IMG/VR virus record: IMGVR_UViG_3300044730_001415 | Location: 1 to 56,479 of that record | Length of the DNA: 56,479 nucleotides | Reading direction: 5' to 3' (one strand) | DNA from: a virus | Lineage: Duplodnaviria; Caudoviricetes | Part shown: in pieces, positions 7,227 through 56,479 of the stretch | Layout of the letters: each line of letters opens with the position of its first letter | Position numbering within the stretch: position 1 is the stretch's first letter | Position numbers and translations under genes: made by a program | The notes under the pieces: model-generated | Told to the model about the DNA's origin: nothing | Seen by the model: only the letters and a program-made list of their open reading frames with translations | Databases searched by the model: none

Positions 7227-7755
7227 ACATGCCCTTTTGAGCCCAAGCAGTTATCACTGGATTAATTATAACGAACAAAAGCTAACGGCTCGTTACTATT
7301 CGGCGGCACAAGCAGCACGCGGCGTTGCTTTACACGAATATGCGCAAACTGCGATAAAGCTAGGAATAAAACAACCAAGAAGCAGTAAGACACTGTATGC
7401 TTACATCAATGATGCAATAAATTATAAGATGAAACCAGAACAAGCGCTCTATTACTCAGACAACTGCTTTGGTACCGCAGATGCAATAAGCTTCCGTAAT
7501 GGTAAGCTTAGAATTCACGATTTAAAAACAGGAATATCAAAAACATCCGAACATCAACTTGAGATCTATGCGGCGTTGTTTTGTCTTGAATATGGCGTGT
7601 CTCCGTTTGAGATAGACATAGAACTTCGCATCTATCAAAACAATGACGTATCTATATTTGTTGCAGACCCCGAAGAAATTCTAACAATCATGAATACGAT
7701 TATTGATTTCGATCGTCACGTTGAATACTTAAAGGAGAACGACCTTGATTATTGA
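7192..7755 (+). CDS. Cas4/RecB-like PD-(D/E)xK exonuclease
   Basis: HALLSPS, G..LH, FGTADAI, IHDLKTG, QLEIYA. Confidence 0.78.
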   Translation: MNFNTHSALRGKHALLSPSSYHWINYNEQKLTARYYSAAQAARGVALHEYAQTAIKLGIKQPRSSKTLYAYINDAINYKMKPEQALYYSDNCFGTADAISFRNGKLRIHDLKTGISKTSEHQLEIYAALFCLEYGVSPFEIDIELRIYQNNDVSIFVADPEEILTIMNTIIDFDRHVEYLKENDLDY

Positions 7756-10489
7756 TGAGGATGAATACAAAGACTATTTGGCTCACTACGGGATTTTGCG
7801 TAAGTCTGGACGTTACCCTTGGGGTTCTGGCGGAGAAGAAATACACTATACAGAGTTTCTCAGCACTGTTGATTCTTTAAAGAAACAAGGGCTTTCGGAG
7901 ACTGCTATTGCGGCAGGCCTTGGTATGAACACGTCCGAGCTTCGAGCTCGAAAGTCAATTGCTAAGAACGAACAAAAACAAGCACGTATCGATCAGGCTT
8001 GGGGCTTAAAAGATAAGGGCGTAAGCACGTCTGAAATCGGTAGGATTATGGGTATTCCAGAATCTACTGTTCGAACGTTACTCGTCCCCGGCGAGAAAGA
8101 CAAGTTGGACCGACTTCAGTCAGTTACCAACATGTTGAAAAAAGAGGTCGATCAAAAAAAGTATCTCGACGTAGGCGATAACACTTGGTTGCATCAAGGC
8201 GTATCAGAAACAACCTGGCGCAATGCGGTTGCCTTGGCTAGAGAAGAAGGCTACACAAAACATTACGTTCGAGTGCTTCAGCTTGGTACCGGAAAAGAAA
8301 CTACAGTTAAAGTGTTAGCCGGCCCTGGAGTGAAAACGTCAGAAGTCAGAAAAAATCAAGACCTCATTCGACAAGTTCAGAATTTCTCTGATGACGGCGG
8401 TAGATCTTTCTTTGGGTTGCTGCCTCCGCTCAAAATAGATCCAAAACGAGTGGACGTAGTTTATAAAGAACAAGGCGGAGATAAACTTGACGGCGTAATA
8501 TATGTGCGCCAAGGCGTTAAAGATGTTTCTCTGGGCGATGCTCGCTACGCACAAGTTCGAATCGCGGTTGGTGATGGGCATTATATGAAGGGTATGGCTA
8601 TGTATAAAGAGGATCTGCCCAAGGGCATTGATCTTCAATTCAACACAAATAAAAGCGATACCGGAAATAAACTTGATGCACTTAAACCAGTAAAGCGTAC
8701 GGGAGAAGGCGACGTTGATGAGGCTAACCCGTTCGGTTCTATAGTTCGACAAATCGTGGCTAGAGAATCAGATGGTAAGCAGTATTTAACTGGATATGGC
8801 AAGAACCTGACTGATGGTACAGAAAAAGTGATCTCTGCCATGAACATTGTGCATGAAGAAGGAAACTGGTCGAACTGGTCAGACACCCTGTCTAAACAAG
8901 TACTATCTAAGCAAAGCACAAAATTAGCAAAAACACAGTTGGACATGACGTATGAGAGTAAGGAAGCAGAATTCAAAGAAATCGCTAAGCTTACTAACCC
9001 GGCCGTTCGAAAGCTACTTTTAGAAAAGCTAGCTGATGATGTTGATTCTTCAGCAGTACATTTGAAGGCCGCTGCGTTAAAGGGTCAAGGGACTCACGTC
9101 ATTCTTCCGATTGGCTCTATGCCCCCGAGTCAAGTTTATGCGCCGAATTACCTTGATGGAACAAAAGTCGTGTTAATTCGATTCCCGCATGGTGGCACTT
9201 TTGAGATTCCAGAATTGACGGTGAACAACAAGCAACCCGAAGCAAAGCGATTGCTGAAGGACGCACGAGATGCGATTGGCATTCATCACTCCGTTGCCGA
9301 AAGGTTGTCTGGCGCAGACTTCGATGGCGACACGGTACTCGTAATACCAAATGACGGCCCTGTTTCTAAAAGAATAGATACAACACGAGCACTGGAAGAC
9401 TTACAAGGGTTTGACCCAAGAAGTTCTTATCGTCGTTATGAGGGCATGAAAGTTATGACCGCACGCGAAAAAGGACTCGAGATGGGTCTCGTGTCAAACT
9501 TAATTACTGACATGACTTTACGAGGCGCGTCTAGAAGCGAACTAGCTAGAGCAATTAAACACTCAATGGTAGTCATTGATGCTGAGAAACACGAACTAAA
9601 CTATAAGCAATCGGCGATAGACAATGGCATTCCCGCATTAAAAGCTAAGTATCAAGGTGGACCAACCGCCGGTGCATCCACTCTAATCTCGTTATCAAAC
9701 CAACAGCTTAGAGTCCCCGACCTCAAACCAAGGCGGGCGCAAGATGGTGGACCAATAGACAAAGCTACGGGCAAAAGGGTATTTGATCCGGCATCTGCTG
9801 AAACTTTTGTTAATAGCAAAGGAAAACAAAACGTAAGAACAAGGCAGTCGGTTAGGCTCGCGGAGACCGACGATGCGTTTACTTTAATTAAAAATACCCC
9901 CACCCAAATTGAAAAGGTATACGCTGAGCATTCTAACAAACTAAAGAACCTTGCTAATGAAATCAGATTAGAGCAAATCAATACCCCCAATGTGGTGAGG
10001 TCGCCATCTGCAGCCAAAGTTTATAAGAAAGAAGTAGATTCCCTGACAGCTAAGCTTCGCATAGCTGAAAGAAACGCCCCCCTTGAAAGGCAGGCTCAGA
10101 TCTTTGCTAATGCTATTGTTCGTATGCGTCAAGCAGCCAATCCTGATATGGACAAAGAAACATTAAAGAAGGTTAAAACCCAGGCCCTAAATCAAGCCCG
10201 TACCCGAACAGGTGCAGGCAAGGATAAAATAGTCATCACTCCAGACGAGTGGAATGCCATTCAACAGGGTGCCGTGTCCAACACAAAACTCAATGAGATT
10301 CTAAGACAATCTGACATTGACGTAGTGCGACAGTTTGCTACACCAGTAAACAAAAAGATTATGACTTCTAATAAAGTTGTAAGAGCCAAGCAAATGTTGG
10401 CCAGTGGCTACACAAGAGCCGAAGTCGCAGCAAAGTTTGGTATCTCTTTAACAACACTAGACACTGCAGTAAACGAGTCCGAGGCTTAG
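7745..10489 (+). CDS. putative single-subunit double-psi-beta-barrel RNA polymerase with HTH domains
   Basis: LSGADFDGDT catalytic-type motif (nt 9317-9331), RFP, QVRI...KG, GLVSNL, HSMVVIDAEKH; HTH-like segments near both termini. Confidence 0.72.
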   Translation: MIIDEDEYKDYLAHYGILRKSGRYPWGSGGEEIHYTEFLSTVDSLKKQGLSETAIAAGLGMNTSELRARKSIAKNEQKQARIDQAWGLKDKGVSTSEIGRIMGIPESTVRTLLVPGEKDKLDRLQSVTNMLKKEVDQKKYLDVGDNTWLHQGVSETTWRNAVALAREEGYTKHYVRVLQLGTGKETTVKVLAGPGVKTSEVRKNQDLIRQVQNFSDDGGRSFFGLLPPLKIDPKRVDVVYKEQGGDKLDGVIYVRQGVKDVSLGDARYAQVRIAVGDGHYMKGMAMYKEDLPKGIDLQFNTNKSDTGNKLDALKPVKRTGEGDVDEANPFGSIVRQIVARESDGKQYLTGYGKNLTDGTEKVISAMNIVHEEGNWSNWSDTLSKQVLSKQSTKLAKTQLDMTYESKEAEFKEIAKLTNPAVRKLLLEKLADDVDSSAVHLKAAALKGQGTHVILPIGSMPPSQVYAPNYLDGTKVVLIRFPHGGTFEIPELTVNNKQPEAKRLLKDARDAIGIHHSVAERLSGADFDGDTVLVIPNDGPVSKRIDTTRALEDLQGFDPRSSYRRYEGMKVMTAREKGLEMGLVSNLITDMTLRGASRSELARAIKHSMVVIDAEKHELNYKQSAIDNGIPALKAKYQGGPTAGASTLISLSNQQLRVPDLKPRRAQDGGPIDKATGKRVFDPASAETFVNSKGKQNVRTRQSVRLAETDDAFTLIKNTPTQIEKVYAEHSNKLKNLANEIRLEQINTPNVVRSPSAAKVYKKEVDSLTAKLRIAERNAPLERQAQIFANAIVRMRQAANPDMDKETLKKVKTQALNQARTRTGAGKDKIVITPDEWNAIQQGAVSNTKLNEILRQSDIDVVRQFATPVNKKIMTSNKVVRAKQMLASGYTRAEVAAKFGISLTTLDTAVNESEA

Positions 10490-49005: not shown

Positions 49006-49386
49006 ATGAGTTTGATAAGTCATGCTCGAGAAGAACTGACTCGAATCAAAGAAGACCCCGATATGATCGAGGGATATTTGGATATTATCCAGTCGTTCGC
49101 AGATCTTAGGCTTAGTGGCTCTCAAGCAGAGCACATGATTCCTATTTTGTTTAAACTGTTGAACTTTCAGCCTTTATCTCCTCTAACCAACGATCCGGCT
49201 GAATGGACGCTAGTTACGGATGATCTCTGGCAGAGTAAACGAAATCCAGAAGCGTTCTCAAAGAATGGTGGCGGAAGCTACTATATTCTATCAGAACGCG
49301 ATATTGACCCAACAGCATTTCACGTTTCACAGCCGACCTACCTCACTATGGTCGACTTGCGGACCAATCAAGTTGTGGATTTGTGA
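49006..49386 (+). CDS. conserved phage protein
   Basis: HAREEL...SGS...PLSPLT.DP.EW...WQSKRNPEAFS. Confidence 0.65.
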   Translation: MSLISHAREELTRIKEDPDMIEGYLDIIQSFADLRLSGSQAEHMIPILFKLLNFQPLSPLTNDPAEWTLVTDDLWQSKRNPEAFSKNGGGSYYILSERDIDPTAFHVSQPTYLTMVDLRTNQVVDL

Positions 49387-51490: not shown

Positions 51491-51500
51491 CTGAAATCTA

Positions 51501-51595
51501 GTTGGTCAAGTGTCGGTAAAGGTCATATTCCGCTTACGAACTACGTAGCGCACGACGTAGGAGTGATGGCACTATATAGGGTATGACTACCAACA
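51501..51595 (+). ncRNA. candidate pseudoknotted RNA
   Basis: GTTGGT/ACCAAC; AGTGTCG/TGGCACT crossing GTCATATTC/GGGTATGAC; inner CTACGT/ACGTAG. Confidence 0.45.
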
Positions 51596-51623
51596 CATTT
51601 TCAAAACTAATCAAAGGAGAAGC

Positions 51624-51836
51624 ATGAAGCAAATTGTCCAAGACACGCTGGTGTACATCGTTGAGTTTGAGCAGCTTCCAAAACTCCCGATCGCCGCCAA
51701 TGATGAAAGTGAAGTTCCGTACGCAATGGCTCTTCAAAACGCCATTGAAGTTGGCATCATAACCAAGGGTGGAAAGTACGGAATTCACATAAACCCAAAC
51801 TCGATGAGTTACATGGTTTATGCAATCGTCGACTGA
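51624..51836 (+). CDS. hypothetical protein
   Basis: AAGGAG RBS; its stop codon lies inside the P1 loop of pistol 1. Confidence 0.65.
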   Translation: MKQIVQDTLVYIVEFEQLPKLPIAANDESEVPYAMALQNAIEVGIITKGGKYGIHINPNSMSYMVYAIVD

Positions 51837-52046
51837 GCGACGTTAAATAGGCCTTTAGGCTCAGAGCGGTATCCCAGGAAGCTGTTCCGTATGACAGCGG
51901 GTTTTTAAGACGTAAAATCTCAACATAGGCAGGACTCTTTGCGTACACGTCGCGAAATCAGCATGAGAGAAAGTAACCGAGAAACTGACTTAACTACGTA
52001 AATTTAGAGTGCGCACTCTTTAGACTCGTAGCTGGGATACATAGGT
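51827..52046 (+). ncRNA. pistol-type self-cleaving ribozyme 1 with ~154-nt insert in the P3 loop
   Basis: CGTCG-ACTGAG-CGACG-TTAAATAG-GCCT-TTAGG-CTCAGA-GCG-GTATCCCAG ... CTGGGATAC-AT-AGGT; same register as the env25 pistol as recalled. Confidence 0.8.
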
Positions 52047-52049
52047 AAC

Positions 52050-52231
52050 CGTCGACTGAGCGACGTTAAACAGGCCTTTAGGCTCAGAGCGGTGTGGGTT
52101 GTGTTCGTAGCACATAAAGCAGATAAGAGGACCGACAGGCGTTAGCAAACGCTTATGGTTTCCGGCATATCATCCTTGGTTTGATATGTACGAGGGATAC
52201 TACGAGTTACCCCTGCTTCCCACACATAGGC
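52050..52231 (+). ncRNA. pistol-type self-cleaving ribozyme 2 with ~120-nt insert in the P3 loop
   Basis: Same 42-nt core (one T>C change); P3 GTGTGGG/CCCACAC; AT; AGGC pairs with GCCT. Confidence 0.82.
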
Positions 52232-52612
52232 ATTCCGTATTCGTGTTGCAATGACGGTTGCAACAAATATGGTAAGATATTCTAGGTGTCCCTGGTATAG
52301 CGCCTAGAATCAAAGCCTTTATTATACCAGTAGGTGTCCAATACGCCTAAACCAAGCCGATCGCGACGGCAATTGGAACCGCGATACTCAGGCGGTATAG
52401 CTTACGGCGTTTCCCGTAAGACACCACTTTGGTGAAATGTAGAGCGGCGTCGACGGTACGCGGCAGCAGAAAACCGGAAGGGAGCCCCAGTCCCCTTATA
52501 CCGAAGCCTTTATGGCAACTGGCGGATCTGTTGAAAAACAGACAGAGTATTGAGCGCGCTGACAGATGATTTACCTCCTTTAATCGTCTGTCGGCGCTGC
52601 TCTACTTTGTGT
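52232..52612 (+). ncRNA. large multi-pseudoknot noncoding RNA candidate
   Basis: ORF-free; consecutive hairpins, three loop-downstream pairings, and a terminal long hairpin with loop TACCTCCTTT. Confidence 0.62.
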
Positions 52613-52619
52613 ATTTTTC

Positions 52620-52692
52620 GCCTCTTTAGCTCAGTCGGTAGAGCAGTGGACTTTTAATCCATTGGTCGTGGGTTCGAACCCCACAGGAGGCA
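52620..52692 (+). tRNA. tRNA-Lys(UUU)
   Basis: GCCTCTT/AGGAGGC acceptor; GTGGA-CTTTTAA-TCCAT; GGTTCGAACC; no encoded CCA. Confidence 0.92.
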
Positions 52693-52723
52693 CTCACCAA
52701 CCACAACAGAAAGGAACGAACGC

Positions 52724-52906
52724 ATGGTTCGTTTTTACGCCCCGGCAAATCTTTGGATTTCCTCCAGAAATCGCGACGACCAGGGAATGCCATCCGGAAA
52801 TTTGGATGGGCATATCTGGGCGGACGTCTGTCAGTGCGTCGAATGTAAAGACGCATACGTTTCGTCCTCTGGAGTAAACATCCAAAATGTTCGAGACTTG
52901 AAATAG
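52724..52906 (+). CDS. small CxxC protein
   Basis: AAGGA upstream; VCQCVEC. Confidence 0.5.
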   Translation: MVRFYAPANLWISSRNRDDQGMPSGNLDGHIWADVCQCVECKDAYVSSSGVNIQNVRDLK

Positions 52907-52912
52907 TCTCGC

Positions 52913-52939
52913 AAACCTGAGCATGTTTTAAAACTGCTC
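52913..52939 (+). other. 27-nt H-type pseudoknot motif
   Basis: AAAC-CTGAGCAT-GTTT-TAAAAC-TGCTC. Confidence 0.7.
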
Positions 52940-52967
52940 ACTCACCAACCACAACCAAGGAGGAGTA

Positions 52968-53165
52968 ATGAAAGCCATCAACATCAACCGGACAACTCAG
53001 CGTTATATTGCTGAGATGTACAACGAAGGGGTTGTGCCTCAGATAGAAGTGGAACCAACGTACTATATCGTTGTTGATGACGGTCCAAATCTGATCGTCG
53101 ACAGACACGAGTACGTTCGCGTCTGGAAAGACAAAGTCGACGTGGACATCATCGCGGTTGTCTGA
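52968..53165 (+). CDS. hypothetical protein
   Basis: AGGAGG RBS. Confidence 0.7.
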   Translation: MKAININRTTQRYIAEMYNEGVVPQIEVEPTYYIVVDDGPNLIVDRHEYVRVWKDKVDVDIIAVV

Positions 53166-53172
53166 GGTTTTG

Positions 53173-53199
53173 GAACCTGAGCATGTTTTAAAACTGCTC
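53173..53199 (+). other. 27-nt H-type pseudoknot motif
   Basis: GAAC-CTGAGCAT-GTTT-TAAAAC-TGCTC. Confidence 0.7.
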
Positions 53200-53253
53200 T
53201 CTTTTTCTTGTTGCACTTAATACCTAATCAACCCAAACAGGAGGAAACACCCA

Positions 53254-53547
53254 ATGGCCATTCCCGAGAACTTCGTGTTCATGAAGAACCCGCCAACAAA
53301 TAAAAGAGGTACCAAGAGCAAGTACGAATCCATTGCGGACGCCTGCCGACGGCATCCCAACATGTGGACTGTCTTCAACACTGACGTCAGCTACGGAATG
53401 ACCACTGCCTTCAAAAAGCAGTTCCCCGGGTTCGAGTTCACGTCAAGAGCAAACCCGCCTGACGGCAACCGCACTACGGTGACCATCTACGGTCGATTTG
53501 TCGAAGAAGTCGACCTAGAACTGGAAGCGCTGCTGGACGAGGAATAA
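53254..53547 (+). CDS. hypothetical protein (possible DNA-binding)
   Basis: AGGAGG RBS; SKYESIA..C..HP..W...GFEFTSR...IYGRFV. Confidence 0.7.
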   Translation: MAIPENFVFMKNPPTNKRGTKSKYESIADACRRHPNMWTVFNTDVSYGMTTAFKKQFPGFEFTSRANPPDGNRTTVTIYGRFVEEVDLELEALLDEE

Positions 53548-53554
53548 ATCTCGA

Positions 53555-53581
53555 AAACCTGAGCATGTTTTAAAACTGCTC
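53555..53581 (+). other. 27-nt H-type pseudoknot motif
   Basis: AAAC-CTGAGCAT-GTTT-TAAAAC-TGCTC, 4 nt before tRNA-Ile. Confidence 0.7.
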
Positions 53582-53585
53582 GCCC

Positions 53586-53659
53586 ATCCCCATAGCTCAG
53601 TTGGTTAGAGCAGCATCCTTATAAGATGCAGGTCACGGGTTCAAGCCCCGTTGGGGATA
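53586..53659 (+). tRNA. tRNA-Ile(UAU)
   Basis: ATCCCCA/TGGGGAT acceptor; GCATC-CTTATAA-GATGC; ACGGG-TTCAAGC-CCCGT. Confidence 0.88.
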
Positions 53660-53663
53660 CTGA

Positions 53664-53734
53664 AAGTAAAAATCGTGGGTGCTACGTCGACGAGACCGTA
53701 CAGTCTGGTAAAAAACAGTCAGGCCACCCACACA
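53664..53734 (+). repeat. 71-bp direct repeat copy 1 (three-way-junction RNA candidate)
   Basis: Two differences from 54198-54268; GTGGGTG/CACCCAC closing stem. Confidence 0.85.
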
Positions 53735-53752
53735 TTCAAAAAGGAGAAAACA

Positions 53753-54199
53753 ATGAAGCTTAACGTGTTCAAGTACATCAAAGAAGTTCTTGATGAGAAC
53801 CACGACGATGGTACCATCGTAGAAAACGTAGAAAAGCTCGAGAGTTCGGTAATTGGTCGCCGGATTGTTTCTGCAGAACGCCAACAGATCAAATCGCGGG
53901 GTTCTTACTGGAGAACAGGATCAACAGTCTTTGTGATCACTCTTGATAATGGCGATCAAGTGCAGTTATTTGATACAGCAGATTGCTGCGCATACACGAC
54001 TCTTGAAAACTTTCTTCTTCACCCGCAAAGCGTTGACCACGTCATTCTTGGTGTTGGTACGACCGAAAAGTACACGACTTGGCATATCTATGCTGATTTT
54101 GGTGACATTCTTGCGCTTGAGGTTGATTGGTCTTGCGGTAATCCGTTTTACTACGGTTACGGCTTTGACATCAACGTTGTGAGTACGTCGTTCAGTTAA
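53753..54199 (+). CDS. hypothetical protein
   Basis: AAGGAG RBS before ATG 53753; DCCA...NPFYYGYGF; flanked by the direct repeats. Confidence 0.75.
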   Translation: MKLNVFKYIKEVLDENHDDGTIVENVEKLESSVIGRRIVSAERQQIKSRGSYWRTGSTVFVITLDNGDQVQLFDTADCCAYTTLENFLLHPQSVDHVILGVGTTEKYTTWHIYADFGDILALEVDWSCGNPFYYGYGFDINVVSTSFS

Positions 54200-54268
54200 G
54201 TAAAGATCGTGGGTGCTACGTCGACGAGACCGTACAGTCTGGTAAAAAACAGTCAGACCACCCACACA
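54198..54268 (+). repeat. 71-bp direct repeat copy 2
   Basis: Matches 53664-53734 at 69 of 71 positions. Confidence 0.85.
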
Positions 54269-54349
54269 AATATGGGGACAGTCCAAGAACCGTTAACACG
54301 CTTGCCGCGGAGGTGAGGATTGGTAGATGTATATACCTAACCCATATTT

Positions 54350-54422
54350 GCCGGATTAGCTCAGTTGGTAGAGCACCGCACTTGTAATGCGGTTGTCGCA
54401 GGTTCAATTCCTGCATCCGGCT
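54350..54422 (+). tRNA. tRNA-Thr(UGU)
   Basis: GCCGGAT/ATCCGGC acceptor; CCGCA-CTTGTAA-TGCGG; GCAGG-TTCAATT-CCTGC. Confidence 0.93.
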
Positions 54423-54444
54423 CTCAATTAGTAAAAGGAGAAAG

Positions 54445-54738
54445 ATGACAGAAATTAATTACGAAGAATACAACACCCGACGCGATGAGTTCTTCCATAG
54501 ACTCGAGTCGCTTTTGGCGGAATACCCAGACGTGATGACAAAACCAACGGTTGGGGATCATGAATACGATTGCGAATGTGATTACAACCCAGACGCTCCC
54601 AAAATGATCAGTGGTATGGTGATGATTGTTACCACTCGTGATGCTAACGATTGGGAGCAATTGTTTTGGGAAAAACCAAGTGGGCAATCATATTTCCACA
54701 CAATCGGAATGGTTCGAGAAGTTCTCGATTCAATGTGA
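54445..54738 (+). CDS. hypothetical protein
   Basis: AAGGAG RBS, 97 aa. Confidence 0.7.
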   Translation: MTEINYEEYNTRRDEFFHRLESLLAEYPDVMTKPTVGDHEYDCECDYNPDAPKMISGMVMIVTTRDANDWEQLFWEKPSGQSYFHTIGMVREVLDSM

Positions 54739-54753
54739 CTAACAAGGAGAGCA

Positions 54754-54891
54754 ATGAGCGTTCAAAAAGAGCGTGAAGCTGTTTTAAAAATTGGTTTGTT
54801 TCCCAACCAATGGAAAGAAAAAGTCAACAAAATGCCAGACAACCAAGTCTTGGCTATTTACCTTCGACTGAAGAGTCAGGGTAAACTTTAG
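54754..54891 (+). CDS. small conserved phage protein (45 aa, not in ORF track)
   Basis: AAGGAG RBS; W.EKV.KMPDNQV.AIY.RL. Confidence 0.65.
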   Translation: MSVQKEREAVLKIGLFPNQWKEKVNKMPDNQVLAIYLRLKSQGKL

Positions 54892-54899
54892 CCAAAAAT

Positions 54900-55037
54900 C
54901 TTCCACATTAATGTTTTGCCAGAGGTCTTGGTGTGGAAGCAATAAAACTTCTGGAGCGTACTAGGTCAAATCCTGAACCCCCCTTTCAAGGATTCCTGGA
55001 AATGTACGTGAGCTAGGGGATAAACCTAAGCCCTAGC
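54900..55037 (+). ncRNA. candidate pseudoknotted RNA upstream of tRNA-Leu
   Basis: CTTCCACATTAA/TTGGTGTGGAAG with loop CCAGAGGT pairing ACTTCTGG; CGTAC/GTACG; AATCCT/AGGATT; GCTAGGG/CCCTAGC. Confidence 0.5.
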
Positions 55038-55046
55038 ACCACACAA

Positions 55047-55129
55047 GCCTGGCTGGCGAAATGGCAGACGCAGGGGACTTAAAATCCCTCGATCATGTGA
55101 TCATCCGGGTTCGAGTCCCGGGCTAGGCA
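55047..55129 (+). tRNA. tRNA-Leu(UAA)
   Basis: GCCTGGC/GCTAGGC acceptor; loop CTTAAAA; long variable arm GATCA/TGATC; CCGGG-TTCGAGT-CCCGG. Confidence 0.92.
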
Positions 55130-55153
55130 CTGGCACTAATCACAAGGAGAAAT

Positions 55154-55192
55154 AAAAGCCTCTAGCGCCTCAAACAAGTGCTATGCTTTTTT
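55154..55192 (+). terminator. variant of the repeated terminator hairpin
   Basis: AAAAGC..TAGCGC-CTCAAACAA-GTGCTA.GCTTTTTT. Confidence 0.6.
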
Positions 55193-55211
55193 CTATTTTA
55201 AAGGAGAGATA

Positions 55212-55433
55212 ATGACCAAAGAATACACAACCGTGGAGTCCGCGCCTTGCATGGCGTGTAAGAAAATTAGAAAATACACAGTCGAAACCAAACAGGCCGA
55301 CGCCTGGCGAAAGGGTAAACGACCCTCGTTCGCGTTTCCGCATTTAACCGCGATGGAGATCGAATCTTTGATAAGCGGCGTGTGTAGCGATAAGTGTTGG
55401 GATAGTTTGTTTAACGACGATCAAAAAGACTAA
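55212..55433 (+). CDS. small Zn-finger-like protein
   Basis: CMAC...AFPHL...E.E.LISGVC...CWD. Confidence 0.7.
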   Translation: MTKEYTTVESAPCMACKKIRKYTVETKQADAWRKGKRPSFAFPHLTAMEIESLISGVCSDKCWDSLFNDDQKD

Positions 55434-55441
55434 GGAGAATA

Positions 55442-55600
55442 ATGAACCAGATCAACCCAGACAAGCTTGACTATGAGGTGTATAGCGCAACAAACAAAAT
55501 ACGCGCAATGACCAATCAAGCACGTAGAAATTTGAACCTGCCAGAAAAGACATACCCACTTGTCCTCCTTGGAGTTCCTGAAACCGGGGAGACATACTAA
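55442..55600 (+). CDS. hypothetical protein (52 aa, not in ORF track)
   Basis: AAGGAG RBS; stop overlaps the next ATG. Confidence 0.55.
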   Translation: MNQINPDKLDYEVYSATNKIRAMTNQARRNLNLPEKTYPLVLLGVPETGETY

Positions 55601-55782
55601 TGCCTACGTATGTCATTTTCTCAACTGGTTATGGCAGAGAAACCCTAATACTAAAGCTTTCGCCAAACAAACAATACTACAACAAATTTGTTGTATGCGA
55701 TAATTTTGTTGACGCTTCGGGCGTCTTAAGGGCTCTACTTGAATTCGAAAATAAGGAGGAAGATAATGAAACGTCAGTGTAA
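55600..55782 (+). CDS. hypothetical protein
   Basis: Translationally coupled 60-aa ORF. Confidence 0.55.
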   Translation: MPTYVIFSTGYGRETLILKLSPNKQYYNKFVVCDNFVDASGVLRALLEFENKEEDNETSV

Positions 55783-55996
55783 TTCCTTCCAATGGATTGG
55801 GCAGCCGATCACTTCGTGCGATGGCTGCGGGAAGCCAGCATGGGACCACGACTACCGAGAGGTCGCCGTTGTTGACTCCGTGCGCGTCGATGCCCCGTGG
55901 GCTTATTGGGTCGTTGGTGATTGGCTGCAACATGGGGTTATCAACCAAAAGCGGGCCGTCTTCTTGGTGGAATTGAAGGTGCGCAGTGAGCAGTGA
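55766..55996 (+). CDS. small Cys/His protein
   Basis: AGGAGG RBS; C..FQW.GQ....CDGCG.PAW.H. Confidence 0.6.
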
Positions 55997-56327
55997 ACCA
56001 ATGAAGTTTCGCAAGAAGCCAGTCGTCATTGAGGCGATGCAGTGGACAGGCACCAACATGCCAGAACTCATTGAGTTCATCGGTGAGCATCCACCCACTG
56101 ATGTCCTTGGCTTTTTCATTCACACCCTGGAAGGGCAGATGTTTGCCAGCCCTGGCGACTGGATCATCAAGGGTGTGGCGGGCGAGTTCTACCCGTGCAA
56201 GCCCGACATCTTTGCGGCGACCTACGAGCGAGTTGGAGGCCTGTCGCGATTGGTTGAGACACCTGTCCCTGTCGTCAAACTCGATCCCGGATACCTTGAA
56301 GTAAGGGAGGCACGTCGTGAGCGGTGA
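55986..56327 (+). CDS. widespread small phage protein (KKPVVIEA...TLEG...YPCKPDIF family)
   Basis: [14 protein letters not shown]...[32 protein letters not shown]. Confidence 0.75.
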
Positions 56328-56479
56328 TCGTATGACATGCATGTTGTGCGGAAGATCCAAAGCATGGCCCGATGGCTACCCGAGCTTGGTTTATGCTGAG
56401 TGCTGGAAATGCTGTTGGGATCGACACAACCGCGAAGAACATCCACCAAAAAAGCGTTGGCGACTTCGTTCCCCAATCT

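Follow-up and report, generated by a model that had tools for sequence, protein, structure and literature searches.

Organisation of the locus

The window, by which we mean the whole stretch of DNA analysed here, is a 56,479-bp virus record (IMGVR_UViG_3300044730_001415), and this report concerns two tandem pistol-type ribozymes that lie on its + strand between a small open reading frame (ORF) and a group of tRNA genes. Both had been described in an earlier note made from the sequence, and all the coordinates given there hold on direct reading (Table 1). The cores of the two units are identical at 41 of 42 positions, the sole difference being T/C at 51848/52071. In both copies P1 is formed by CGTC(G)/(C)GACG, and the loop sequence CUGAGC is complementary to GCUCAG further along the core (51859-51864 in the first copy, 52082-52087 in the second). 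Each core is followed by its own P3, whose two strands close over a long distance around a large insert; the P3 pairs are all Watson-Crick (nine in copy 1, seven in copy 2), and the P3 sequences of the two copies are unrelated. The units are arranged head to tail with a spacing of 3 nt, and the interval between the predicted cut sites, 52042-52226, amounts to 185 nt.

The same P3/P2 closures were recovered for both copies by a script that was given the core alone, and nested minimum free energy (MFE) folds of the whole units closed the long-range P3 in both. The chance of such closures was assessed on 5000 dinucleotide shuffles of the downstream 590 nt, requiring a purine-T junction, four of four P2 pairs and a contiguous P3 in which G-U was allowed; the 9-pair P3 of copy 1 was observed in 0 of the 5000. 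A contig from another DNA run (X2, 769 nt) spans 51802-52570 with 0 differences to the window. The tandem is thus present in more than one data set and is not an assembly artefact of a single sample.

Table 1. Features of the tandem pistol locus and its flanks (positions in the window)
Feature	Position	Strand	Evidence or remark
70-aa ORF	51624-51836	+	ORF list; TGA stop 51834-51836 within the P1 loop of pistol 1
Pistol 1 core	51827-51868	+	Rfam RF02679, 41.4 bits; positions 1-42 of model R2
Pistol 1 core parts			P1 hairpin, linker UUAAAUAG, P2 5' strand GCCU, UUAG, pseudoknot strand GCUCAG, AGCG
Pistol 1 equivalents of purine-32, G33 and G40-C41-G42	51858; 51859; 51866-51868		Purine-32 = G51858; G33 = G51859
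Pistol 1 P3 5' strand, GTATCCCAG (RNA: GUAUCCCAG)	51869-51877	+	9/9 pairs with 52032-52040
Pistol 1 insert 1 (P3 loop, 154 nt)	51878-52031	+	AU-rich, several hairpins
Pistol 1 P3 3' strand, CTGGGATAC (RNA: CUGGGAUAC)	52032-52040	+	Sequence, script, model R2
Pistol 1 junction A-U, predicted scissile phosphate	52041-52042	+	Aligns with the 'gU' junction of model R2
Pistol 1 P2 3' strand, AGGU	52043-52046	+	Pairs with GCCU 51851-51854, one G-U pair
Pistol 2 core	52050-52091	+	Rfam RF02679, 44.7 bits; model R2, 69.3 bits
Pistol 2 equivalents of G32, G33 and G40-C41-G42	52081; 52082; 52089-52091		
Pistol 2 P3 5' strand, GUGUGGG	52092-52098	+	7/7 pairs with 52219-52225
Pistol 2 insert 2 (P3 loop, 120 nt)	52099-52218	+	Hairpin, then stem AAGCAG/CUGCUU around three hairpins
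Pistol 2 P3 3' strand, CCCACAC	52219-52225	+	Sequence, script, model R2
Pistol 2 junction A-U, predicted scissile phosphate	52226-52227	+	Model R2
Pistol 2 P2 3' strand, AGGC	52228-52231	+	Pairs with GCCU 52074-52077
Non-coding leader, 388 nt	52232-52619	+	Between pistol 2 and tRNA-Lys; MFE fold
tRNA-Lys(UUU), first of four same-strand tRNA genes	52620-52693	+	ARAGORN; Rfam tRNA, 75.9 bits

Assignment to the Pistol class

Both units belong to the Pistol class. With the inserts left in place, the Rfam Pistol model RF02679 scored both copies above its gathering threshold of 34.5 bits, the alignments covering 52050-52112 and 51827-51879 within model positions 1-68. Every upper-case consensus position of the Rfam alignment is matched in copy 2, and copy 1 departs from this match at one lower-case linker position only. 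The features that define the class were found in both copies, namely a P1 loop engaged in a 6-bp pseudoknot, a P3 that directly follows G42, a closing P2, a junction of exactly 2 nt, and the core nucleotides purine-32, G33, G40, C41 and G42 together with the linker A's. The G-U scissile dinucleotide is the one feature that differs, being A-U in both. An Rfam scan of the window gave no ribozyme family besides Pistol and no match resembling the hepatitis delta virus (HDV) ribozyme.

The Rfam alignments end 50-60 nt into each unit, where P3 is placed locally and wrongly, and the 3' halves of both copies are misaligned. The compact pistol of Gordonia phage GTE7 fares likewise, its evident P3 and G|U being misplaced by the Rfam alignment. 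Predicted cleavage sites located 150-200 nt downstream are therefore missed by routine annotation. We built two further covariance models, R1 from 20 relatives and R2 from 24 relatives with P3 loops of ~35-170 nt; left out of R2 were the window, the near-identical contigs of the L007 type and locus L052, both of which are treated below. Copy 2 was aligned over its full length by R1. R2, run with its filters off, matched copy 1 at 51827-52046 (63.4 bits, E 5e-15), where the 9 P3 pairs are all standard, P2 has 4 pairs and the junction is 2 nt long, and copy 2 at 52050-52231 (E 2e-16), with 7 of the 9 model P3 pairs. All 119 model positions are spanned in both copies, and P3, the 2-nt junction and P2 are in register. 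The proposal of two tandem pistol-type ribozymes, each with its own P3 and P2 around a large insert, is thus borne out by the Rfam scores and by the end-to-end R2 matches. The predicted scissile sites, A52041|U52042 and A52226|U52227, fall where both the sequence and R2 would place them.

Recurrence and covariation among relatives

The architecture recurs. A degenerate core pattern was found in 33 stretches of viral contigs and 97 of metagenome contigs (~130 contigs), and in 185,579 species genomes it was found only twice, both times in contigs of metagenome-assembled genomes. The Rfam Pistol model scored above gathering in all of the 29 related loci scanned (15 + 14). A P3 of at least 7 contiguous bp with a purine-U junction within 260 nt of the core was present in 59 of 86 non-redundant cores, compared with 4.3 of 86 after shuffling. 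Since the P3 loops of the relatives range from ~2 to ~170 nt, the window inserts stand at the upper end of a continuum and are not unique.

The core searches fixed the P1 and pseudoknot sequences, and covariation was measured for P2 and P3. Over 102 model hits (89 distinct), 91.2% of the pair cells hold standard pairs, as against 62.4% when shuffled (a value as high as the observed was reached in 0 of 500) and 32-54% when the partners are slid, and double-sided changes were seen at all 13 of the pairs (4/4 in P2, 9/9 in P3) on the 89 distinct hits; the alignment of these hits was fitted to the model, which favours the pairing figures somewhat. The junction is always 2 nt long among the 89. Covariation of P2 and P3 around a junction of fixed length points to selection for the complete ribozyme fold and not for a hairpin alone.

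Pistols in direct tandem whose inserts differ were observed at two other loci, L070, where 10 nt separate the copies, and L112, where the spacing is 34 nt and the second copy is cut by the contig end; looser arrays are common, for example four pistols within 2.6 kb in L022. An 18-nt pattern specific to pistol 2 had no match in the viral contigs.

Position 32, the pseudoknot and the scissile dinucleotide

Three departures from the known pistol had been listed in the earlier note, and of these only the A-U junction is left, in part. Position 32 is a conserved purine, and a published review gives a G there in one crystal structure and an A32G variant whose activity equals that of the wild type (PMC6154101), so that G32 is canonical and no deviation. 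The supposed 5-bp pseudoknot becomes the canonical one of 6 bp (CUGAGC/GCUCAG), the length given in the same review (PMC6154101), when the fifth P1 pair is counted as part of it, following the Rfam consensus.

The junction is indeed A-U and not G-U in both copies, and this lies within published variation: in a description of the class the scissile dinucleotide is a 'modestly conserved GU' whose identity 'varies somewhat', the P3-P2 junction length being strictly conserved (Harris et al. 2015, PMC4604425). The model hits to the 89 distinct relatives show GU at the junction in 50 cases, AU in 33, GA in 3 and CU in 2, with one junction cut off. Of the 33 A-U copies, 31 have loops of 40 nt or more, and in the strict script set A-U is paired with 14 distinct P3 heptamers. 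Bimolecular pistols without a P3 loop remain active according to the same paper (PMC4604425), and an open or expanded distal P3 is therefore compatible with catalysis. A literature search on G53A returned no pistol paper with that term.

Proposed function and the evidence that bears on it

We consider it probable (about 0.72) that both units are functional Pistol-class ribozymes of a phage-borne subclade with lineage-specific P3 domains, and that they cut the transcript in which they are embedded. We counted in favour of this reading that both pistols lie on the same strand as the neighbouring genes and tRNAs, start at an ORF stop and precede a conserved leader. The pistols would be transcribed rightwards together with the preceding small-gene block, and each core (P1, the 6-bp pseudoknot, the P2 5' strand, G33 and G40-C41-G42) would fold first. 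The ribozyme would be completed 154 or 120 nt later, once the 3' strands of P3 and P2, with the A-U junction between them, have been transcribed, and in-line attack by the 2'-OH of A52041 and of A52226 would then cut the transcript. Three products are predicted: an upstream mRNA whose structured 3' end consists of ribozyme 1 and insert 1 and bears a 2',3'-cyclic phosphate, a free 185-nt RNA (52042-52226) that is essentially ribozyme 2 with insert 2, and a structured leader with the tRNA precursor, starting with a 5'-OH at U52227. Cleavage and these exact ends are predictions from the sequence, and the tandem pair may serve, independently of protein, to process or insulate the transcript where coding RNA gives way to structured RNA with tRNA.

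Weak evidence that the region is transcribed comes from contigs of three RNA libraries, which hold an L007-like relative. These contigs cover 51845-51972, 51907-52045 and 52265-52486, and so reach into pistol 1, insert 1 and the leader. The contigs examined contain no joints; those from the RNA libraries do not cover copy 2, cannot show RNA ends, and are therefore neutral on cleavage and on circles.

Several observations weigh against functional ribozymes with a processing role. One RNA-library contig, X24, starts at 51907, crosses site 1 and continues for a further 71 nt in L007-like downstream sequence, which means that uncleaved RNA, or contaminating DNA, is present. In a precatalytic crystal structure, N2 of G53 contacts O6 of G42 (PMC7027511); an A at position -1 lacks this contact, and the window copies may be slower for that reason. 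For copy 1, both R1 and R2 with default filters preferred a decoy at 51923-51930, ACAUAGGC, on which R1 put the 3' end of the unit (61.4 and 62.9 bits, as compared with 63.4 bits for the full closure), and this alignment requires the deletion of seven P3 pairs. In the chance test, a 7-pair P3 like that of copy 2, with G-U counted, arose in 43 of the 5000 shuffles. The whole of unit 1 is no more stable than its shuffles (z -0.65), and neither is insert 1 clearly so (z -1.7). The processing role is read from position alone, and association with tRNA is seen in a minority of the relatives only (24 of 144 cores are followed by a same-strand tRNA within 3 kb).

The structured inserts within P3

The structure that had been named in the inserts was recovered in part. 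AAGCAG/CTGCTT, AGGCGTT/AACGCTT and GCATATCA/TGATATGT all appear in the MFE fold of insert 2, for which z was -3.1 against shuffles; insert 1 did not stand clearly above its shuffles. In insert 2, UUCGUAG (~52104-52110) and CUACGAG (~52200-52206) may in addition pair loop to loop. Insert 1 is found at 94% identity in the contigs L007, L033, L091 and L111, all of which are without pistol 2, and one of its hairpins stays paired through double-sided changes in the L007-type contigs (UUUGCG..CGCGAAA to UUUGUA..UGCAAAA). A BLAST search of insert 2 against the first 33 relative loci gave no match, and the homologue came from the metagenome scan: a partial counterpart lies inside the P3 of the L052 pistol, where the ends GUGGGUUGUGUUCGUAGCAC and GAGGGAUACUACGAGUUACCC are conserved, the middle is replaced, and the enclosing stem AAGCAG/CUGCUU has become AAAGG/CCUUU, with both sides changed. 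At least two recurring insert families (A and B) were observed within the P3 of other contigs. Taken together, the inserts appear to be evolving structured modules.

It is possible, though in our view unlikely, that the P3 inserts sense or bind a ligand, protein or RNA and so gate P3 closure, and with it the occurrence and timing of the cut, or else that they are cargo small RNAs whose 3' ends are made by the ribozyme. Assembly of the active site does need P3 to close between strands 120-154 nt apart, which suits gating, and both gating and cargo would fit with the recurrence of conserved families A and B in the P3 of different contigs, with the two blocks of insert 2 shared with L052, with the hairpin of insert 1 that keeps its pairing, and with the A-U junctions that accompany long loops. 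Against this reading, an Rfam search of 51500-56479 at E up to 5 returned only tRNA, Pistol and below-gathering matches on or beside the tRNA genes, with no aptamer, and the inserts of 14 relatives gave no Rfam family at E up to 1. The inserts range widely in length and sequence, as would be expected of a permissive loop, compact copies with the same core exist, and the neighbouring genes point to no ligand or partner. A recognisable aptamer, the mark of an allosteric ribozyme, is thus absent as far as Rfam can tell, and a novel aptamer class is possible. A fuller version, in which the inserts are functional domains gating P3 closure or cargo matured by the ribozyme and the 185-nt RNA is released in a form that a host RtcB could circularise, strikes us as no less doubtful, and marginally more so. 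If true, these would be natural allosteric or folding-timed pistols, a kind of ribozyme that has long been sought and seldom found.

Two further features were seen in insert 1. A terminator-like hairpin, GCUGUUCCGUAUGACAGC followed by GGGUUUUU with its run of five U's, occupies 51881-51903, just 3' of the P3 5' strand of pistol 1, and termination there would leave pistol 1 incomplete. An RNA-library contig reads through this hairpin, and a scan for promoters and terminators found sites no more commonly than in shuffles. The sequence ACATAGGC at 51923-51930, the position of the decoy mentioned above, is a repeat of the lineage's P3 3' end, junction and P2 strand; it may be left over from an earlier closure, compete as a P2 partner, or have arisen by chance.

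Other readings of the tandem

Somewhat less likely again than gating or cargo is that the units are dead relics or structural RNA, such as a 3'-end stabiliser or protein-binding site, and that cleavage has been lost from A-U copies whose P3 is expanded. The G53 N2 contact lost by an A at -1 and the RNA-library contig that bridges site 1 speak for such a loss, and the portions of the pistol literature consulted hold no biochemical data on A-U or long-insert pistols. Relics, however, would hardly be expected to keep all the highly conserved Rfam positions intact in both copies, nor would the P2/P3 covariation around an always 2-nt junction in 89 distinct relatives, or the occurrence of A-U with so many different P3 sequences, be easily explained.

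The 185-nt unit could also be excised and circularised, by a host RtcB-type enzyme or by reversal of the ribozyme, with regeneration of pistol 2, and could have entered the genome as a module; we hold this to be very improbable. When compared with L007, L033, L091 and L111, the window has exactly one extra pistol unit, whose borders lie in the 7-nt repeat ACATAGG that contains the cleavage site (52040-52046 and 52225-52231, corresponding to L007:2494-2500), so that insertion from site to site is conceivable, and a joint between A52226 and U52042 would rebuild P3-AU-AGGU for pistol 2. The inserts of the two pistols differ, however, and the pair is therefore no multimer of one replicon; DNA recombination, either at the 7-nt microhomology or between the repeated cores, accounts for the indel just as well; and no joints occur in the contigs examined, though those from the RNA libraries lack copy 2. 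The annotated large ORFs included no reverse transcriptase; the scan took in 10 of the 67 ORFs that reach 110 aa, plus 10 small ones. Circularisation of the 185-nt product by an RtcB-type ligase, as had been suggested earlier, finds no support in the virus record, in which neither RtcB (PF01139) nor RNA_ligase (PF09414) is matched.

A DNA-level repeat (a protein-binding, promoter or recombination site) with no more than a chance likeness to a pistol is already disfavoured and next to negligible, since its 42-bp near-perfect direct repeat and a promoter-like match in insert 1, of a kind rarer in the sequence than in shuffles (4 against a mean of 8.0), are set against covariance-model scores from Rfam and our own models with E down to 2e-16, compensatory P2/P3 changes across 89 relatives and a strand that agrees with transcription.

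Comparison with known systems

We return to functional, P3-expanded pistols as the preferred reading. The window and ~130 related contigs most likely represent a pistol subclade with expanded P3, often with A-U and sometimes in tandem, within a known class and a known phage habitat, to judge from their sequences. The features shared with the Pistol class (RF02679; Harris et al. 2015, PMC4604425) are P1, the 6-bp pseudoknot, P2, P3 and the 2-nt junction, together with purine-32, G33, G40-C41-G42, the AAA-containing linker and the association with phage genes. The window differs in that the Rfam consensus has a P3 loop of ~7 nt where the window has structured domains of 154 and 120 nt, in that the junction is A-U instead of G-U, and in that its units stand head to tail only 3 nt apart. 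The habitat is that of actinophage-like freshwater viruses and not that of the Firmicutes reportedly emphasised in 2015, the year in which pistol was described by Weinberg and colleagues.

The nearest counterpart is a pistol of Gordonia phage GTE7 (JN035618.1, 63,9xx-64,06x), which lies in an unannotated intergenic region after Orf83. Its core is ~92% identical, the pseudoknot sequence is equal, and it too is positioned directly after an ORF. It differs in being a single copy with a 12-14-bp P3, a 10-14-nt loop and the canonical G|U.

Theta ribozymes abut the tRNA they process, whereas the window pistols are of another class, abut an ORF stop, lie 529 and 752 nt upstream of tRNA-Lys and have no HDV-like fold. 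Like the window pistols, theta ribozymes, which are HDV-like and adjoin viral tRNAs in gut phages, are phage ribozymes near tRNA genes for which a part in RNA processing has been proposed (Kienbeck et al. 2024, PMC10879173). In viroid-like RNAs and retrozymes, two serial cut sites likewise yield a unit RNA with 5'-OH and 2',3'-cyclic-phosphate ends, as reviewed in PMC6765202 and PMC7761336; the window units, in contrast, are not one repeated sequence and reside in a double-stranded DNA phage. Identical repeated units accompanied by a circle, a ligase or a reverse transcriptase, which characterise those systems, were not found in the window. Literature searches returned no paper on large P3 inserts, A-U or tandem pistols, and the original 449-500 sequences may document such variants.

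Three features set the subclade apart: expansion of P3 into conserved structured domains of up to ~170 nt, a scissile dinucleotide that is often A-U, and a ribozyme at or near an ORF stop with structured RNA after it and sometimes tRNA clusters or arrays. It yields testable roles, namely transcript insulation, 3'-end protection, gated cleavage and the release of a ribozyme-domain RNA, and so provides a handle on the biology of pistols.

Flanking sequences and related loci

The 70-aa ORF that ends in the P1 loop of pistol 1 matched no Pfam family. Its region is kept in L007 at 96% DNA identity, and in L007 a different ORF likewise ends at the P1-loop stop. A frame of at least 50 codons ends at the P1-loop UGA in 29 of 92 non-redundant cores, while the other two frames give 16 and 7. 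At the P2 3' strand of pistol 1, L007 has AGGC, a single-sided change that keeps the pair.

The leader between pistol 2 and tRNA-Lys is strongly structured, with an MFE of -150.4 kcal/mol (z -6.1) that was equalled in 0 of 100 shuffles. It is found at 92-94% identity in L007-type contigs, in which pairing is kept through the double-sided change of CCUGGUAUA/UAUACCAG to ACCAGUAAU/AUUACUGG, and it had no Rfam match at E up to 5. Near its end is a ~20-bp hairpin (~52545-52597) followed by a U-rich tail; the hairpin loop contains ACCUCCUUU, which we take to be identical to the anti-Shine-Dalgarno end of 16S rRNA.

L007 carries two extra small ORFs upstream, inserted at a repeat of CGTCGACT, and both end in P1 sequence. 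Together with the extra pistol unit of the window, these insertions look like modular shuffling at ribozyme borders.

A conserved motif was observed 3' of the cleavage site in relatives (for example L008:5700-5800, L009:7195-7300, L058 and L100), and it is present in most of those that bear inserts, by eye in ~40 of 49 aligned sequences. Its order is (A/G)U, 3-4 nt, the hairpin CUGUGAAGGAnnACACAG, a second, variable hairpin whose loop resembles UUGAUCA, and then GGGUAAACAAAAAACCGC UUCG. Given its place, the 3' cleavage product would begin with this motif. It had no Rfam match, either at gathering (15 loci) or at E up to 1 (14 loci), and its signature sequences (CUGUGAAGG...CACAG and AAACAAAAAACCGC) do not occur in the window even with 2 mismatches allowed. 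At L109:3340-3468 (- strand), which equals L016, the pistol P3 insert ends in GUGGGGUUCGAUUCCCAC, immediately before the P3 3' strand; this end resembles a tRNA T-arm with acceptor stem and was not called by the Rfam tRNA model at gathering.

The phage genome

The window has an estimated completeness of ~94% and a G+C content of ~45%, and its sequence was found chiefly in lake and freshwater metagenome runs. It encodes a terminase, a portal protein, a protease, tail proteins and a primase-polymerase, the last with 62% identity to Gordonia phages of the Deejayvirinae, of which the phage appears to be a distant relative. By amino acid identity of the DNA polymerase, Petito is the best match (62.6%), and Gordonia phage Gravy (61.9%) is among the closest isolated relatives; in the arm of Gravy that corresponds to the one discussed here, the ORFs are tightly packed and no tRNAs are annotated. 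All genes that neighbour the pistols are on the + strand, as are the four tRNA genes.

Two other proteins of the window deserve mention. A 126-aa protein (49006-49386, +) matches Pfam PF25185, the Type I Thoeris inhibitor Tad3, with E 1.8e-27. A 914-aa protein (7745-10489, +) matches phrog_4291 from end to end at 1230 bits, a family labelled 'RNA-dependent RNA polymerase' in PHROGs; it may be a phage-encoded RNA polymerase, a candidate relevant to the question of which enzyme transcribes the ribozyme region.

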